This document shows, piece by piece, positions 6,831-31,210 of a stretch of DNA of 32,000 nucleotides (positions within the stretch are counted from its first letter, which is position 1; each line of letters opens with the position of its first letter). A model generated the notes under the pieces. That model was not told the origin of the DNA. It searched no databases and worked only from the letters and a program-made list of their open reading frames with translations. The DNA lies in assembly GCA_964354495.1 (NCBI GenBank), contig CAYHAA010000006.1, positions 30,001 to 62,000 of the forward strand, read 5' to 3'. A program made the translations under genes and the position numbers. Origin of the DNA: an uncultured archaeon. GTDB taxonomy: Archaea > Asgardarchaeota > Thorarchaeia > Thorarchaeales > Thorarchaeaceae.

Positions 6831-6949
6831 TGCGGGAGGCGAGGTTCGAACTCGCGGACTCCTACGAGAGCGGATGTCTTCTCAGCATGACCCCTTGTCT
6901 TCATGTGATCTTAAGTCCGCCGCCTTTGACCAGGCTTGGCTACTCCCGC
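6831..6949 (-). tRNA. tRNA-Leu(UAA) with a 34-nt canonical 37/38 intron (6876-6909)
   Basis: Reverse complement GCGGGAG...GCGGA-CT-TAA-G|intron|A-TCCGC, long variable arm, TTCGAAC loop, CTCCCGC-A. The intron folds into a hairpin with relaxed BHB geometry. Confidence 0.93.
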
Positions 6950-7022
6950 ACAAATGTGTGCCCAGTCTTTTTTGAGAGAATATTGGAGGTGCTCATGAAT
7001 TCTTTGATGATGTTTGAGATTG

Positions 7023-7133
7023 TGGTGGGCCGCGCCGGATTTGAACCAGCGACCTTCGATTCCGATGAGTCGGTGACTCGATTCGGATTCTCGGTGTAAA
7101 CGAGACATCATAGCCGGGCTAGACTAGCGGCCC
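7023..7133 (-). tRNA. tRNA-Val(UAC) with a 33-nt non-canonical intron at about 44/45 (7055-7087) and encoded CCA
   Basis: Reverse complement GGGCCGC...TCTCG-TT-TAC-AC-CGAGA-A|TCCGA..GAGTC.ACC.GACTC..TCGGA..AA|GGTC-GCTGG-TTCAAAT-CCGGC-GCGGCCC-A-CCA. Removing 33 nt gives a standard 75-nt tRNA. Confidence 0.92.
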
Positions 7134-24397: not shown

Positions 24398-24409
24398 GAA
24401 CATGTGTTC
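24398..24409. promoter_or_regulatory. Palindromic GAAC-N4-GTTC site 1 (GAACATGTGTTC)
   Basis: One of four near-identical 12-bp palindromes between 24398 and 25037. Confidence 0.65.
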
Positions 24410-24433
24410 CAACGTTCGGTGCCAAAAGACTTC

Positions 24434-24445
24434 GAACACGTGTTC
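24434..24445. promoter_or_regulatory. Palindromic GAAC-N4-GTTC site 2 (GAACACGTGTTC, perfect palindrome)
   Basis: Read directly from the sequence. Confidence 0.65.
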
Positions 24446-24458
24446 CACTAGCTATATG

Positions 24459-24476
24459 ACCCTACCATTTCCACTC
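24459..24476 (-). other. ORB-like element, reverse orientation (GAGTGGAAATGGTAGGGT)
   Basis: 15/18 identical to the forward element at 24608-24625; the two flank an approximately 33% GC spacer. Confidence 0.55.
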
Positions 24477-24550
24477 GAGATAATCAAAGGGGCTATTATA
24501 CTTTTAGATAGCGATACGTTTAAATAGCTGTTTCGAAAGCTGATTCTTAT

Positions 24551-24605
24551 CTCCATTTTTATCATCATACAGTCAATCGCTGATCAGCACTCCATTTTTA
24601 TCATC
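24551..24605 (+). repeat. 16-bp direct repeat CTCCATTTTTATCATC x2 (24551-24566, 24590-24605)
   Basis: Exact repeat with 39-bp period. The second copy lies 2 nt before the forward ORB-like element. Confidence 0.85.
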
Positions 24606-24607
24606 TG

Positions 24608-24627
24608 GAGTGGAAACGGAGGGGTGT
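24608..24627 (+). other. ORB-like element (GAGTGGAAACGGAGGGGTGT)
   Basis: Has the GTGGAAAC..AGGGG core and G-string of archaeal origin recognition boxes. The last 16 bp are identical to 28773-28788. Confidence 0.65.
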
Positions 24628-24681
24628 TACCCCAATAGTCTTTTGACCTCATACAGAAATATATCCACATAAGAGTCACTC

Positions 24682-24693
24682 GAACACGTGTTC
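24682..24693. promoter_or_regulatory. Palindromic GAAC-N4-GTTC site 3 (GAACACGTGTTC)
   Basis: Read directly from the sequence. Confidence 0.65.
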
Positions 24694-24716
24694 TAGGACT
24701 CGGGTTACAATCCGCT

Positions 24717-25004
24717 TCAAACCTCTTTCACAACCTGATACACTCTAAGCTTGAGAATATCCTGGTACATTGAAAACAGACTATCGAATATGCTTCGATG
24801 CTCATCAGGAACAATGATCGCGGAATCTGCTACTGCCTCAGCTCCTGAACACTCATCTAAGAGACCTTGTTTGCGTTTTTCTCTTATTTCAGACTTAGTT
24901 CGCCAGGTATATGTATATCCATACAGTTCCTTAGTGAATGCTACTCGCCGTGCATTACTTTGCCTCGCATGCCTACAGTCATAAAGATAGAGATACGAAA
25001 CCAT
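24717..25004 (-). CDS. Small stand-alone protein with a Cas2/VapD-like N-terminal motif (95 aa)
   Basis: MVSYLYLYD (hydrophobic strand ending in YD, as in Cas2), RRVAFTKELYGY, GLLDE, SAIIVP. Fold assignment is by eye. Confidence 0.6.
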   Translation of the reverse strand: MVSYLYLYDCRHARQSNARRVAFTKELYGYTYTWRTKSEIREKRKQGLLDECSGAEAVADSAIIVPDEHRSIFDSLFSMYQDILKLRVYQVVKEV

Positions 25005-25025
25005 TTCAATCAGACCAGTGTCACA

Positions 25026-25037
25026 GAACACATGTTC
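25026..25037. promoter_or_regulatory. Palindromic GAAC-N4-GTTC site 4 (GAACACATGTTC)
   Basis: Begins 22 nt upstream of the ATG at 25004, within the divergent promoter region. Confidence 0.65.
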
Positions 25038-25158: not shown

Positions 25159-26460
25159 ATGAATCGCATTGGTCTGCGTAAAGAAGAGAAGGCTTTTGAA
25201 TCCAGAGCTCCACTGATACCTGAACATGTCAAGTCTTTACGAGATCAACACAAGATCGACTTCATTGTAGAACCTAACAAACAACGTGCTTTCTCAGAAA
25301 ATGAATACAAGAAAGTCGGCGCAACCATCACCCCTCTGAAAGGAAGCGGTGCCCAAGTAGTTTTCGGAATCAAGGAGATGCCAATTGGTTTCTTCGAGAA
25401 AGATGTCGTTTATGTCTTCTTCAGCCACACAATCAAGGGGCAGGAACATAACATGCCCATGCTTCGAAATATACTTCAAGCAGGTGCAACCCTTGTTGAC
25501 TATGAACGCGTTGTGGATCAGAAGGGAAAACGTCTCATCTTCTTTGGTAACTGGGCAGGCATGGCCGGTATTTCAGATACATTCCATGTTCTTGGAGAGC
25601 GACTAAGAGTAGAAGGTATCAGTTCTAATCCGTTTACTGGAATGAAATCAACATTGAAACTGAAGAACCTGGAGGCAGTCATGGAAGAATTCAGGCTCTT
25701 GGGTAAACGAATTAATGATCAAGGACTTCCCAAAGAGCTCACGCCATTCGTTGTTGGATTTGCTGGATATGGTAATGTCTCTCAAGGAGCCCAAAAGATA
25801 TTCGATATCTTGCCTCATGAAGTAATAGAACCAGAGAAGCTCTCAACCCTTAAGCCAAAAGAGAATGTCTTGTACAAGTGCATCTTCAAGGAAGAGCATA
25901 TGGTTCAACCTAAGAGTCCATCAACAAAGTTCAATCTTCAAGACTACTACGACACAGGAAAAGCCAACTACATAGGCGTTTTCGAGAAGTACGTTCCCTA
26001 TCTCTCGATACTGATGAATTGTATCTACTGGACTGATAAGTATCCGACATTGGTGACCAAGGACTTCATTCGCAAACACTGGAATGAGGCCAATCGAAAG
26101 TTGCGTGTTATCGGTGACATCTCTTGTGATATTGATGGTGCAATTGAGTTCACAATGAGAAGCACAACACCTGGTAATCCAGCATTCACCTACATCATCA
26201 ATGAGGACCGTGCAGAACTTGGTGTGAAAGGCAATGGTCCAGTTGTCATGGCCGTTGACAACTTGCCATGTGAGCTTCCACGAGAATCATCAATGTCATT
26301 CAGTGGAACACTGATTCAATTCATCCCTGCATTCGCGACTGCTGACTTCACTGCATCCTCATTTGAGAAACTTAATCTGCCGAAAGAAATCAAGGATGCA
26401 GTCATCGCGTACCGAGGAAAACTAACGAAGAATTATGAATATCTTAAGGAATACCTATAG
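25159..26460 (+). CDS. Lysine-ketoglutarate reductase / saccharopine dehydrogenase (lysine-forming) domain protein, AASS N-terminal-like
   Basis: Motifs IGLRKE..FESRAPLIP, FFSHTIKGQ.HNM, DYERVVD..GKRLIFFG.WAG.AG, GYGNVSQGAQ, NCIYW, IGDISCD..GAIEFT, MAVDNLPCELPRESS. Confidence 0.9.
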   Translation: MNRIGLRKEEKAFESRAPLIPEHVKSLRDQHKIDFIVEPNKQRAFSENEYKKVGATITPLKGSGAQVVFGIKEMPIGFFEKDVVYVFFSHTIKGQEHNMPMLRNILQAGATLVDYERVVDQKGKRLIFFGNWAGMAGISDTFHVLGERLRVEGISSNPFTGMKSTLKLKNLEAVMEEFRLLGKRINDQGLPKELTPFVVGFAGYGNVSQGAQKIFDILPHEVIEPEKLSTLKPKENVLYKCIFKEEHMVQPKSPSTKFNLQDYYDTGKANYIGVFEKYVPYLSILMNCIYWTDKYPTLVTKDFIRKHWNEANRKLRVIGDISCDIDGAIEFTMRSTTPGNPAFTYIINEDRAELGVKGNGPVVMAVDNLPCELPRESSMSFSGTLIQFIPAFATADFTASSFEKLNLPKEIKDAVIAYRGKLTKNYEYLKEYL

Positions 26461-26474
26461 GAGGACAAAACCAA

Positions 26475-27785
26475 ATGAAGAAAGTGCTCTGTCTGGGTGC
26501 CGGACTCGTTGCTCGTCCATACATCCAATATCTTAGTGAGAATGGCTTTCATGTCTTTGTTGCCAGCAGAACAAAGAGCAAAGCTGAACACCTGATAGAT
26601 GGTTGTGAGAATGCAGAGGCTATTCCCTTCAACATAGCCACAGATGATGCTCTTCTTGAAGAGCTGACAACCAAAGCGGATCTCGTCTGTTCATTACTTC
26701 CATACATTCATCATGTCAAGGCAGCAAAGGTTGCAGTAAGACACAAGAAACACTTCTGTACGACATCCTACATCTCAGCCGAGATGAAGGCTCTAGACGA
26801 AGATGCCAAAAAAGCGGGAGTCCTACTTCTCAATGAGTGTGGCGTTGACCCTGGTATGGATCATATGACTGCCATGCAGATAATAGACCATGTTCATAAC
26901 AAAGGAGGCGAGATTAGGAGCTTCACATCATTCACTGGCGGTCTTCCAGCTCCTGATGATAATAACAATCCATATGGCTACAAACTATCATGGAGCCCTC
27001 GCGGAGTTCTTCTTGCTGGAAGGAATGATGCTCACTTTTTGCGAGATGGCAAGGAGGTCTTGATTCGTGGGGCAGACCTGTTCCAAAACTATGAGCTGAT
27101 GGAGGTGCCAGGAGCAGGCACTTTCGAGGCGTATCCAAATCGTGATAGTATGTCCTACATTGAGATTTACAATATACCTGAAACAAAGACGATGCTCCGT
27201 GGTACTCTTCGCAACATAGGCTGGTGTGAAACACTTGATAAGATAGCAGGCTTGGGTCTACTGGACCTAGAGGAAAGATCTCTAGCTAACACGACATATG
27301 CAGCCATGATGAGAGACCTAACATCAGCAGGTAACATCAAGACCGCAGTCGCCAAGTTCTGTGGGGTTGCAAAGAATCATCCAATCTTAAAACGCCTTGA
27401 ATGGCTTGGGCTGTTCGATGAAGTCATCATACCACCTGGTATCAACACAAGGCTTGATGCACTATGTCATCTCTTCGAACAGAAGCTACAATATGCACCC
27501 GGAGAACGCGATATGCTAGTGATGCACCACGAGTTCATAGCTGAGTATAAAGACAAGAAGCAGAAGATCACATCGACACTCATTGACTATGGAGTTCCCA
27601 ATGGCGACAGCTCTATGTCAAGAACAGTAGCACTACCGGTTGCTATTGCTAGCAGAATGATACTTGAAAGAAAGATCAAACTCACCGGAGTTCATCGCCC
27701 AGTCGTTGCCGCCCTGTACGACCCCATTCTTCAAGAGCTTGCGGGTCTAGGTATAGCCCTCGAAGAGCACGTATCTAATCTGTAA
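26475..27785 (+). CDS. Saccharopine dehydrogenase (glutamate-forming), Lys9/AASS C-terminal-like
   Basis: Motifs VLCLGAGLVARP, SLLPY..H, TTSYIS, NECGVDPGMDH, GGLPAP..NNNPYGYKLSWSPRG, YPNRDS, LRGTLR, SSMSRTVALP; SD GGAGG. Confidence 0.93.
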   Translation: MKKVLCLGAGLVARPYIQYLSENGFHVFVASRTKSKAEHLIDGCENAEAIPFNIATDDALLEELTTKADLVCSLLPYIHHVKAAKVAVRHKKHFCTTSYISAEMKALDEDAKKAGVLLLNECGVDPGMDHMTAMQIIDHVHNKGGEIRSFTSFTGGLPAPDDNNNPYGYKLSWSPRGVLLAGRNDAHFLRDGKEVLIRGADLFQNYELMEVPGAGTFEAYPNRDSMSYIEIYNIPETKTMLRGTLRNIGWCETLDKIAGLGLLDLEERSLANTTYAAMMRDLTSAGNIKTAVAKFCGVAKNHPILKRLEWLGLFDEVIIPPGINTRLDALCHLFEQKLQYAPGERDMLVMHHEFIAEYKDKKQKITSTLIDYGVPNGDSSMSRTVALPVAIASRMILERKIKLTGVHRPVVAALYDPILQELAGLGIALEEHVSNL

Positions 27786-27823: not shown

Positions 27824-28465
27824 CTACTCACGAACTCGCATTTGTATGGCTGTCAGAATCTCTTCTGCTCTCTCTGTTTCTTTCTGAACCTCTTTCAGCT
27901 CAGTCTTCAGCCTGTATGTATATCCGGAACGGTTTCCATATCGTTCTAGGTGACCCTTACCGTTATTCCACATTCGTGCAAGATATGTCGAAGATGTACT
28001 CTTGGGCAAATCCTCACTGAATGAATCTTCATAGATCTCAGCAACATCCAACGATGAGAACTTGCCATGTTTGAAAGATGCATAGATGATGAGCTGCATC
28101 TTTTCATAGCTGCTCATAGAGTCAAAACTGCTTTCATCGTACCCCGTATCTGGCACTTCCCCAATGACCTCTTCAAAGCTGCAACCAGTACTGGTTTCTA
28201 AGAATACTTTGAACTTAGCAAACATTTCTTCTACACTGCCGCCCTTGACTTGAAAACTCGACTCTTCGCCCATAGTTTCATCGGATACTACTATCTTGAA
28301 ATCAAAGGGTGTTTCTGTCAGCGAGAGGATCTTACTGAATCTGTTGAGTGCCTCATTTGGATTCACATACTTGCACTGGAAGATTTCACGGAGACCTGGG
28401 GCAGAATAATATGTGAATTCATACACATAGTTCGTTCGGTCTCCATCACTCAATTCTATCACCAC
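27824..28465 (-). CDS. Uncharacterised protein with a C-terminal winged helix-turn-helix domain (GTG start)
   Basis: C-terminal segment SYEKMQLII..F..GKFSSLDVAEIYEDSFSEDLPKSTSSTYLARM...GHLERYG....YTYRL has a wHTH pattern. Confidence 0.75.
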   Translation of the reverse strand: MVIELSDGDRTNYVYEFTYYSAPGLREIFQCKYVNPNEALNRFSKILSLTETPFDFKIVVSDETMGEESSFQVKGGSVEEMFAKFKVFLETSTGCSFEEVIGEVPDTGYDESSFDSMSSYEKMQLIIYASFKHGKFSSLDVAEIYEDSFSEDLPKSTSSTYLARMWNNGKGHLERYGNRSGYTYRLKTELKEVQKETERAEEILTAIQMRVRE

Positions 28466-28908
28466 TTGAAGATACTATCTACTTCATTGATTCATTCACA
28501 GAATACTAGAGTGTCCGTCCAAATAAGTGTGAGTATGTGAATTGTACATACGGAGATAAGAGATACATACCGCGCCTGTTCAATTTCAGAACCCATCCAT
28601 CTCGTTTCTTGTGTGCTCACGTCCTTCTTCGTCTTTGAACTAGCAATAAAGGGTTATGAGCGCTCTATACGCGAAAATAAGGAAGTTGTCCAACCTTTTT
28701 ATCATTCACAGAATTATATGGCTTGTGAATGAAGTCATAAGGATTTCATATGTGCGATTACTTAGTTCCATAGGAAACGGAGGGGTGTGTCCATTCACAA
28801 TGATAAGAAGAGCTATTACTGCTTAGTTGAGTACAAAAAGCATACAAAACACCGATTTCCATAGTGGATTCACAATATTGGCGCCATTCACACGAATTCA
28901 TTGTGAAT
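28361..28908. repeat. Cluster of 10 ATTCACA/TGTGAAT heptads in direct and inverted orientation
   Basis: Forward copies start at 28361, 28494, 28704, 28793, 28868, 28886; reverse copies at 28412, 28536, 28724, 28902. Includes the perfect inverted repeat TCATTCACA-N13-TGTGAATGA (28702-28732). Confidence 0.8.
28765..28788 (+). other. ORB-like element (GTTCCATAGGAAACGGAGGGGTGT)
   Basis: Has the TTCCA..GGAA internal dyad plus G-string, close to the canonical archaeal ORB, and is followed by an approximately 33% GC stretch. Confidence 0.7.
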
Positions 28909-29995: not shown

Positions 29996-31210
29996 ATGGC
30001 AACCAAAATGGATGTCAGATTGGACTTTGGTGTCTATGATGAGATTCCCAGTTTCGCGTACTTCGACTCAGCAAGCACAACATTGGTTCCTAAGTCATCA
30101 GTGAATACAACTGCAGTTTTCCTTAGTTCGGTGGTAGTTTCTTCACGACGAGGTGCACATAGACTTGCTGTCAGGGGCAGCAATATCGTGGAAACCACCC
30201 GACAAACCTTATCTCGATTTCTGGAAACCGACCCTGCTTCGATTTCATTTCAGAAATCTATACCCTCTACAGTTGCATCTTTTGTTTATGGCTACAATTG
30301 GAAGGATAGCAAAAGGAACAAAATAGTCGTTGCCCAATCTGAGGAAAATTCTGTCTACGTATCTATGCTGCGTGCTGCAGAGGTACTACATCTAGATGTG
30401 GAAATCGCTCCAATAGAGAATGATGGTTCTGTATCGCTCAGTTTGCTTGACAGCTTGATTGATGGAAGGACGGGAATTGTTGCAGTTAGTCATGTTATTC
30501 CAGGAATCGGCACAAAGAATCCAATTTCAGAAGTTGCGGAAATCGTTCACTCGCATGATGCGCTCTTACTGACAGACTCGACACGGTCAATGGGAGTAGT
30601 AGAAGACTCCCCCGTTCATCTTGGAAGTGACGTTCTCATTTTCTCCGCAAACATCGGGCTAATGGGCCCACCAGGTTTGGCACTCCAATGGATCAATCCG
30701 TCTGTAGATAGGAATCATATACCAGGGATTCTTGGAGGGTCCACTGTTTCGAATGTTCATAATAAGGAGTACGAAGTTGCATTTCAGCCTGACAAATATG
30801 AACCGGACTATCTCAATGTTCCTGCAATCGCTGGACTTGATACTTCAATCAATTACCTAACTGAGCTTCGCTCAAACGGTCTGATTAGACATCTTGCTCG
30901 TCTTTCGAATCATATGAAAAAGCGTCTGCGCGAGATTGATGGCTTGACTCTGTATGGCGCACCCAAGAGTGGAACAACCATTTTCGGTTTCAATCTTGGC
31001 GACACCTCTCAGATCGGATGTCATGATATTGCATTATTCCTTGATGAGTCAAACATAGCAGTCAGAAGTGGCCTTGTCTGTGCACATCCTCTAATACAAT
31101 CGATGACACAGGATGGTCTCGTTCAAGTCTCTCTTCATGGGTACAACACAATTGATGATATCAATCATCTAGTTTCTACCCTAGACACGATCTCACAGCA
31201 ACTGCTGTGA
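29996..31210 (+). CDS. SufS/class V aminotransferase-fold protein lacking the PLP Schiff-base lysine
   Basis: Motifs YFDSASTT, VAVSHV..G...NP, GGSTV, YEP..LNVPAIAGL, AVRSGLVCAHP are present, but the S.HK motif reads FSANI. Confidence 0.85.
   Translation: MATKMDVRLDFGVYDEIPSFAYFDSASTTLVPKSSVNTTAVFLSSVVVSSRRGAHRLAVRGSNIVETTRQTLSRFLETDPASISFQKSIPSTVASFVYGYNWKDSKRNKIVVAQSEENSVYVSMLRAAEVLHLDVEIAPIENDGSVSLSLLDSLIDGRTGIVAVSHVIPGIGTKNPISEVAEIVHSHDALLLTDSTRSMGVVEDSPVHLGSDVLIFSANIGLMGPPGLALQWINPSVDRNHIPGILGGSTVSNVHNKEYEVAFQPDKYEPDYLNVPAIAGLDTSINYLTELRSNGLIRHLARLSNHMKKRLREIDGLTLYGAPKSGTTIFGFNLGDTSQIGCHDIALFLDESNIAVRSGLVCAHPLIQSMTQDGLVQVSLHGYNTIDDINHLVSTLDTISQQLL

Follow-up and report, generated by a model that had tools for sequence, protein, structure and literature searches.

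Background

Among the described systems closest to the locus analysed here is Sulfolobus oriC1, where ucm, a motif distinct from the origin recognition box (ORB), is read by the small non-initiator protein UBP alongside Orc1-1 (Dhanaraju et al. 2025, PMC12141716). UBP, an abundant nucleoid protein of 111 aa, has over 300 sites in the genome, and no linkage of its gene to the origin is described there (PMC12141716). The present locus consists of a gene for a 213-aa winged-helix protein and an adjacent array of ATTCACA/TGTGAAT heptads, and lies in a window of 32,000 bp (positions 30,001 to 62,000 of contig CAYHAA010000006.1, here C6) from the 3,295,382-bp (3.30-Mb), 51-contig genome of an uncultured Thorarchaeal archaeon (GCA_964354495.1); coordinates given without a contig refer to this window. 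As with UBP and ucm, a non-ORB motif is found inside an archaeal origin locus, with a proposed small non-initiator reader that would act with Orc1. The systems differ in that here the genome holds a single cluster of the motif, the gene itself lies within the origin locus, and a winged helix is combined with an extra N-terminal domain in the protein; UBP is also set apart by its description, its hundreds of sites having no counterpart here.

WhiP, a Cdt1-like initiator, is described as possessing two winged-helix domains and as the factor that defines Sulfolobus oriC3, an origin without Orc1 ORBs. The likeness is that a winged-helix protein is encoded beside the origin element on which it is thought to act, whereas the Thorarchaeal protein has one winged helix and its gene lies beside canonical ORBs and, in most lineages, orc1/cdc6. 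The fold of residues 108-213 (Z about 8), together with weak profile matches to Penicillinase_R, CopR and MecI, recalls PadR and BlaI/MecI/CopY regulators, from which the present case differs by the extra N-terminal domain and by a multi-site origin array in place of one dyad operator. TACA/TGTA dyads occur in BlaI/MecI/CopY operators, and TGT..AA is the part that stays constant in the Asgard heptads. An ORB set apart from an ORB-DUE-ORB core (DUE, DNA unwinding element) has been described for Haloarcula hispanica oriC2, where an ORB-rich region outside the core controls the origin and is not itself where initiation occurs, with titration of Cdc6 as the proposed mechanism (Wu et al. 2013, PMC3936714). 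That region holds ORBs only and requires no second protein, whereas here one ORB is placed in an array for a different reader. The bipartite oriC1-dnaA-oriC2 origin of Helicobacter pylori has DnaA boxes on either side of the initiator gene (PMC3479198). The likeness lies in initiator-binding sites on both sides of a gene in an origin locus; the H. pylori case is bacterial, its sites are DnaA boxes and the enclosed gene encodes the initiator, whereas a proposed accessory winged-helix protein is encoded here. In the literature searched, no description was found of Asgard ORBs, origin architecture, origin-binding accessory factors or the winged-helix protein.

A unique, conserved heptad array beside the winged-helix gene

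The winged-helix gene occupies 27824-28465 on the reverse strand, and ten exact heptads lie within 548 bp at its 5′ end, at 28361, 28412, 28494, 28536, 28704, 28724, 28793, 28868, 28886 and 28902. Eight of them are intergenic and two lie within the gene; they are dispersed, in mixed orientation, at spacings of 16 to 170 bp. With 650 copies in the whole genome (0.197 per kb), approximately 0.11 would be expected in 548 bp, and no other 550-bp span of the genome contains at least five copies, the overall genomic density being near background. A preliminary description of the window, made from its sequence alone, had reported ten heptads within 550 bp (eight intergenic and two intragenic) and a chance expectation well below one copy, together with inverted pairs at 28702-28732 (perfect 9-bp arms) and 28886-28908 and heptads on both sides of an ORB at 28765. 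All of these were found again, the second pair reading ATTCACA-N9-TGTGAAT and the ORB spanning 28765-28787, and the genome-wide count of ATTCACA clusters that it had proposed as a check left the array without a second example. Only one more inverted pair occurs in the genome; it falls within a coding sequence for a zinc ribbon (C20:38126) and is attributed to chance, and a heptad regulon was rejected as a candidate explanation.

Within the GTDB family of this genome, the gene is present in single copy in 38 of 43 genomes, with protein identities of 80-97% within the genus and 62-75% across the family. Alignment of 30 orthologous loci showed that the eight intergenic heptads are kept in sequence and position in all 30, at fixed offsets of -443, -427, -409, -334, -265, -245, -77 and -35 from the start codon, with the ORB at about -312, and that the DNA between these conserved blocks varies freely. 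Invariant blocks separated by free spacers are the pattern of putative protein-binding sites, and the eight intergenic heptads most likely form the binding array of the adjacent winged-helix protein. The two intragenic heptads (28361-28367 and 28412-28418) recur in few close relatives only; because few orthologues have them and the codons that they overlap are conserved (KYVNP and YEFTY), they appear to be codon coincidences, probably outside the functional array. The ten-copy array as first described is therefore retained in its eight intergenic members, conserved in 30/30 loci, and given up for the two intragenic copies, which are a minority feature of the orthologues on conserved codons. 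Gene and array are kept together in each of the 30 Thorarchaeal loci, which was a further check proposed in the preliminary description.

The gene and its array in the predicted origin locus of other Asgard lineages

Outside the family, relatives were found of the C-terminal half only, as proteins of 145-175 aa forming approximately 60 clusters at 50% identity; the comparison covered 56 of their loci, from 18 GTDB families of the phylum (designated here by f numbers). An orthologue of the Thorarchaeal cdc6 gene at C6:118418-119674 is the direct neighbour of the homologue in ten families (f2, f3, f6, f7, f8, f12, f13, f15, f19 and f21), where it is either divergent, sharing the intergenic region with the ORB and heptads, or tandem and downstream. 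These cdc6-linked loci include those of the complete Freyarchaeia (G038) and Atabeyarchaeia (G023) genomes and of a genome, G001, that is probably Odinarchaeum (consistent with LCB_4). As in Thorarchaeota, an ORB lies on the antisense strand 253-326 bp upstream of the gene in f2, f6, f8, f12, f13, f15 and f19, and in f12, f3, f6 and f21 the gene start is followed, 0.6 to 1.5 kb downstream, by an inverted ORB pair. The gene belongs to an Asgard-wide family inside the predicted chromosomal origin locus, a placement that holds for most of the other Asgard lineages sampled, and the connection of gene and array with a replication-origin locus, previously suggested from the window, is upheld by homologues beside ORBs and orc1/cdc6 across Asgard lineages.

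Heptad-like sites accompany these distant homologues. Between 3 and 10 TGTnAAn sites are found in the 550 bp upstream of the gene in f2, f6, f7, f8, f12, f13, f15, f19, f21 and f23, relative to an expectation of 0.1 to 0.3 per upstream region calculated from the rest of each locus. The shared layout comprises a distal pair at approximately -430/-405, a site approximately 7 nt past the ORB G-string, a pair at approximately -260/-245 and a promoter pair at approximately -75/-45. The heptad reads TGTGAAT in f1, f2, f6, f13 and f19, TGTGAAC in f21 and part of f12, TGTTAAC in f7 and part of f12, and TGTGAAA in f8 and f23. The word changes at all sites of a genome together, which points to one co-evolving reader, and the recognition helix of the winged-helix protein partly tracks it, with STxSTYL accompanying TGTGAAT, SVVSTYL or ATASTYL accompanying TGTTAAC, and ATASQYLK/R found with TGTGAAC only.

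Two lineages separate the array from cdc6. In Thorarchaeota the orthologous cdc6 is approximately 60 kb from the array and has no heptads upstream, the other Orc1/Cdc6 paralogue being 21 kb from it. In family f9 the cdc6 orthologue is present in 24 of 25 genomes, whereas a winged-helix homologue was found in 0 of 40 genomes and in none of the cdc6 loci, where the DNA upstream of cdc6 is also free of an array. The winged-helix protein is favoured over Cdc6 as the reader of the heptads because the Thorarchaeal heptads stayed with its gene when cdc6 moved, and because f9 has cdc6 but neither the gene nor the array. Upstream of cdc6, the f9 loci (L149-L172) are very rich in AT and lack any ORB of the GGAAAY-N2-4-GGGG type; either the ORB consensus or the position of the origin differs in this family. 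Upstream of the Thorarchaeal orc1/cdc6 gene, C6:119675-119900 contains mini-ORB-like dyads (TTCCACTGGA, TTGGAAC and TATGGA) and neither a G-string ORB nor heptads; it probably represents an Orc1 autoregulatory site that stayed behind on the separation of cdc6 from oriC. A 475-aa open reading frame (ORF) beside the Thorarchaeal cdc6 (L001) is a further conserved component of the locus, as it adjoins cdc6, at 30-50% identity, in almost every other Asgard origin locus that was examined (L053-L084).

Position of the predicted origin core

The canonical archaeal origin core consists of inverted ORBs around an AT-rich element, in the order ORB(-)/DUE/ORB(+). Such a core is present at 24458-24627, 4.2 kb from the heptad array, as an inverted ORB pair (24458-24479 on the reverse strand, with a degenerate G-string, and 24605-24627 on the forward strand) whose dyads face an AT-rich spacer of approximately 125 bp that contains a 16-bp direct repeat. 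Long flanks were obtained for 20 family loci, and in most of these the ORB pair lies approximately 3.85-4.0 kb downstream of the gene start. At the coordinates of the array itself no ORB(-)/DUE/ORB(+) arrangement was found; there is a single ORB, and the AT-rich tract or unwinding element looked for in the heptad region is absent (approximately 36-44% GC, and approximately 43% in a variable 170-bp stretch). Because it has one ORB only and no AT-rich tract, the heptad region is not an origin core and represents an outlying ORB with an array of its own.

The predicted ancestral order is orc1/cdc6, ORB1 with the heptad array, the winged-helix gene, ORB2, the AT-rich unwinding element and ORB3. 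In Thorarchaeota, the interval between the winged-helix gene and the ORB pair is occupied by a 104-aa gene and two lysine-metabolism genes. The latter, an LKR-like gene and a saccharopine dehydrogenase (SDH) gene at 25159-27785, occupy this position only in the Thorarchaeal family and, from the order of genes in the loci compared, look like an insertion into an ancestrally compact origin locus.

The 104-aa ORF (24717-25031, reverse strand) is without a Pfam match; 19 family loci contain it at 46-74% identity. Beyond the family it is part of the origin locus in f2, f3, f7, f19 and f21, always beside ORBs, and by this conservation is a real gene, the second uncharacterised gene of the predicted origin locus. 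Four GAACAYRTGTTC palindromes (24398, 24434, 24682 and 25026; region 24398-25037) flank the ORB pair and this gene, one of them at the gene start. The palindrome occurs only 12 times in the genome. The offsets of the four copies are conserved across the Thorarchaeal family, and these copies may be operator or origin sites of the 104-aa protein.

Three exact copies of the ORB core GGAAACGGAGGGG are found in the genome, always in intergenic DNA: in the heptad array, at window position 24612 and on contig C28. The C28 locus (C28:4885-5157) sits upstream of a small ORF and combines, in this order, a GAACACGTGTTC palindrome, an AT-rich stretch of approximately 70 bp, a mini-ORB CCAGTGGAAAC and a full ORB CTCCATCGGAAACGGAGGGGAT; it may be a second origin or an Orc1-regulated promoter.

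Layout of the heptad region

The heptad nearest the gene (TGTGAAT on the reverse strand, 28494-28500, offset -35) coincides approximately with the expected transcription start and is invariant in the 30-locus alignment; its counterpart in other Asgard families is at about -45. Upstream of it, the invariant 24-nt block AATTCACATACTCACACTTATTTG (28520-28543, reverse strand) contains the heptad at -77 (28536-28542) and, after it, a TATA-like CTTATTT. Judged from its position only, this block, which the -77 and -35 heptads bracket, is likely to serve as core promoter of the winged-helix gene. The middle inverted pair, ATTCACA-N13-TGTGAAT (28704-28730), has a conserved central ATA and lies at -265/-245 on the gene strand, with a counterpart in f12 at about -260/-245.

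The solitary ORB GTTCCATAGGAAACGGAGGGGTGT (28765-28787, forward strand, approximately -312) is present in 30/30 loci. It has the archaeal ORB form of a TCCA-N2-4-GGAAA dyad followed a few bases downstream by a G-string, the dyad facing the gene and the G-string pointing away from it. The heptad at -334 (28793-28799, reverse strand) lies 7 nt past the G-string, forming a composite ORB-plus-heptad site, and this spacing of approximately 7 nt is seen again in f2 and f12. A degenerate partner ORB considered at 28856-28868 was rejected, as relatives keep only a GAAA remnant there and no conserved ORB. Farthest from the gene is a cluster of three heptads (28868-28908, with copies at 28868, 28886 and 28902), which includes the N9 inverted pair and, at 28880-28892, the invariant block TGTGAATGGCGCC (given on the gene strand); the distal pair has a counterpart in f12 at about -423/-402. 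Elsewhere in the window (6831-7133), two tRNA matches span 108 and 119 nt against a 71-position model, and these tRNAs probably contain introns.

The winged-helix protein

No Pfam match was found for the Thorarchaeal 213-aa protein, and every database name met for the family is ‘hypothetical protein’, the profile search listing mostly Thorarchaeal sequences and the cluster look-ups including one entry from Jordarchaeia. A search of the ESM Atlas gave sub-threshold leads only (scores 0.86-0.89), to hypothetical proteins of 148-167 aa labelled Nitrososphaerota and Bathyarchaeota. Profile matches to Penicillinase_R, CopR and MecI are weak, with PDB profile matches at E 0.035 to 0.1; one distant homologue, P0133, passes the Penicillinase_R model (28.1 bits relative to a cutoff of 22.6) and the others fall below the cutoff.

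The AlphaFold model (mean predicted local distance difference test score, pLDDT, 79.7) comprises an N-terminal domain (residues approximately 9-95), a low-confidence linker of approximately 20 residues, and a winged helix with a long C-terminal helix (108-213). A winged helix followed by a C-terminal helix is the arrangement of PadR- and BlaI/MecI-like regulators, and the top matches of residues 108-213 are PadR-family (Z 8.1 to 7.7) and related repressors. The fold is considered generic because ORC/Cdc6 winged helices and the C-terminal domains of Cdt1 (3a4c, 5meb) match at the same level as PadR/MarR proteins; homology to the ORC, Cdc6 or Cdt1 winged helices is unproven. The structure comparison proposed in the preliminary description thus did bring up Cdt1, tied with generic winged-helix repressors. 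Two tandem winged helices of the WhiP/Cdt1 kind were not found in the predicted structure, which contains a single winged helix (residues about 119-186) and an unrelated N-terminal domain, in agreement with the initial impression that the protein is not WhiP-like.

Two beta-beta-alpha units make up the N-terminal domain; the short-form homologues have one. No clear structural match to it was found, the best being p19, ERH and the little fingers of Y-family polymerases (Z at most 6.2, Foldseek E at least 0.02). A co-fold of two copies as a homodimer scored 0.00 and has no bearing either way. The low-confidence linker of the model would suit the reading of half-sites at variable spacing, which is conjecture.

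Proposed role and alternative explanations

From the conservation and uniqueness of the array, its linkage to the origin and cdc6, and the winged-helix fold, we infer that the protein binds the heptads, regulates its own gene and may have an effect on replication. The reading that we somewhat favour, on the basis of linkage and co-variation, is that of an autoregulated accessory factor which recognises the heptads and acts together with Orc1 in the origin locus; rather than a new initiator, the protein is probably an accessory factor of the Asgard origin that has not been described before. One winged helix would read each TGTGAAT, and dimerisation through the N-terminal domain, combined with the flexible linker, could conjecturally bridge half-sites 16 to 42 bp apart. 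Binding at -77 and -35, on either side of the gene's own TATA-like box, would result in autorepression. At the remaining sites, which include the one 7 nt past the ORB1 G-string, a nucleoprotein complex of approximately 420 bp would form beside Orc1 at ORB1, and this complex might tune Orc1 occupancy or helicase loading at the nearby origin and, in most lineages, the transcription of the divergent cdc6 as well.

Several observations weigh against this proposal. GC skew on contig C6 follows the gene strand and is uninformative for the origin. In the 2.76-Mb Atabeyarchaeia genome a sparsely sampled skew was noisy, and that of a contiguous 400 kb agrees only loosely, its local cumulative minimum lying approximately 85 kb from the locus. 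Should G001 be the Odinarchaeum genome already published, its authors' skew-based guess at the origin is position +1 and not the locus at 623 kb. Origin activity of any Asgard locus considered here is a prediction from sequence. The match between recognition-helix motif and heptad is no clean code, as there is one exception (L082), the lineages are few and the relationship is confounded by phylogeny, and for the homologues in f5, f17 and f20 clear heptads are lacking, as are an ORB at -300 and a neighbouring cdc6. Sites placed round a promoter, and in many lineages shared with a divergent cdc6, would also fit a purely transcriptional role.

Such a role is the main rival, with a real though minority chance of being correct. 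The protein would act as a transcription factor only, repressing its own gene and the divergent or downstream cdc6, and the upstream ORB would be an Orc1 operator or part of the neighbouring origin. The TATA-like block bracketed by the heptads at -77 and -35, the location of the array in the divergent intergenic region between cdc6 and the winged-helix gene in most families, and the PadR/BlaI-type repressor fold are all consistent with it. However, eight fixed sites over 420 bp, one of them fixed 7 nt from an ORB, exceed what autoregulation needs, the full layout persists in Thorarchaeota without a flanking cdc6, and the sole genomic cluster of at least five heptads leaves no regulon for such a factor.

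It is quite improbable that the heptads are read by another protein, either an Orc1/Cdc6 paralogue or the 104-aa origin-locus protein, with the winged-helix gene as a mere neighbour. Heptad binding by the winged-helix protein is itself a prediction, cdc6 is linked to the array in ten families, and the 104-aa gene is also part of the origin locus in several families. Against a Cdc6 reader, the Thorarchaeal cdc6 is approximately 60 kb off with no heptads upstream, and f9 has cdc6 without the array; against the 104-aa protein, its gene was not found with the Thorarchaeal query in the array-bearing f12, f13, f15, f6 and f8 loci, and in the window it is flanked by a different repeat, GAACAYRTGTTC.

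A centromere-like partition site with the winged-helix protein as its binding protein, comparable with parS/ParB, AspA or omega, would account for a unique, origin-proximal, mixed-orientation array beside the gene for its own DNA-binding protein, and the preliminary description had likened the heptads to omega-type partition sites and iterons. This comparison found no support. The heptads are dispersed at 16-170 bp and not contiguous, the protein has a winged helix and not a ribbon-helix-helix, and the conserved partners across lineages are ORBs and cdc6; no ParA/SegA-type ATPase was found among the immediate neighbours checked (LKR, SDH, nucleotidyltransferase-like and SufS-like), a genome-wide ParA/SegA search not having been made. 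A partition role is therefore given very little weight.

The reading of gene and array as an independent second origin, fired by a winged-helix initiator in place of Cdc6 by analogy with WhiP and oriC3, takes the initiator/iteron unit of the preliminary description in its strongest form and is now considered barely credible. An ORB is present, and the gene adjoins its repeat array as initiator genes usually do, but the canonical, conserved origin lies 4.2 kb away (immediately downstream of the gene in other lineages), Orc1/Cdc6 genes are present in the genome, and the array has a single ORB with no inverted pair and no AT-rich unwinding element at its 36-44% GC. The array also differs from tandem iterons, which are direct repeats of about 17-22 bp in one orientation adjoining a Rep gene and an AT-rich region, as its sites are 7 bp long and of mixed orientation, and the protein has one winged helix, no ATPase and no WhiP/Cdt1-like architecture. 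A structured non-coding RNA in the intergenic region has a next to negligible chance of being the explanation, for although the 470-bp gap is long and conserved and RNAalifold gives 31 paired columns, there is no Rfam match, conservation is confined to short blocks with free spacers, and the predicted pairs are the inverted heptads only, with equal scores on both strands.

Implications

Asgard archaea are the closest known prokaryotic relatives of eukaryotes, and the locus provides a sequence-level model of an Asgard oriC, with three ORBs of which an inverted pair surrounds the DUE, as well as a conserved, previously unnamed gene embedded in the origin. It also provides exact binding-site predictions that are testable by a simple electrophoretic mobility shift assay (EMSA) or footprint, and allows better annotation of the origin in Thorarchaeota, where it is not beside cdc6. 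A stronger version of the accessory-factor proposal, which we regard as unlikely, is that the protein is a lineage-specific second Asgard origin factor, encoded in oriC and acting on heptads beside Orc1 at ORB1, that is needed to license or restrain helicase loading; if true, it would place in archaea a step on the way to the multi-subunit origin recognition machinery of eukaryotes, which is rich in winged helices. If the winged-helix protein works with Orc1 as favoured here, the Asgard origin would be the second archaeal origin that needs a non-initiator DNA-binding protein, after UBP and ucm, and the first in which that protein is encoded at the origin.

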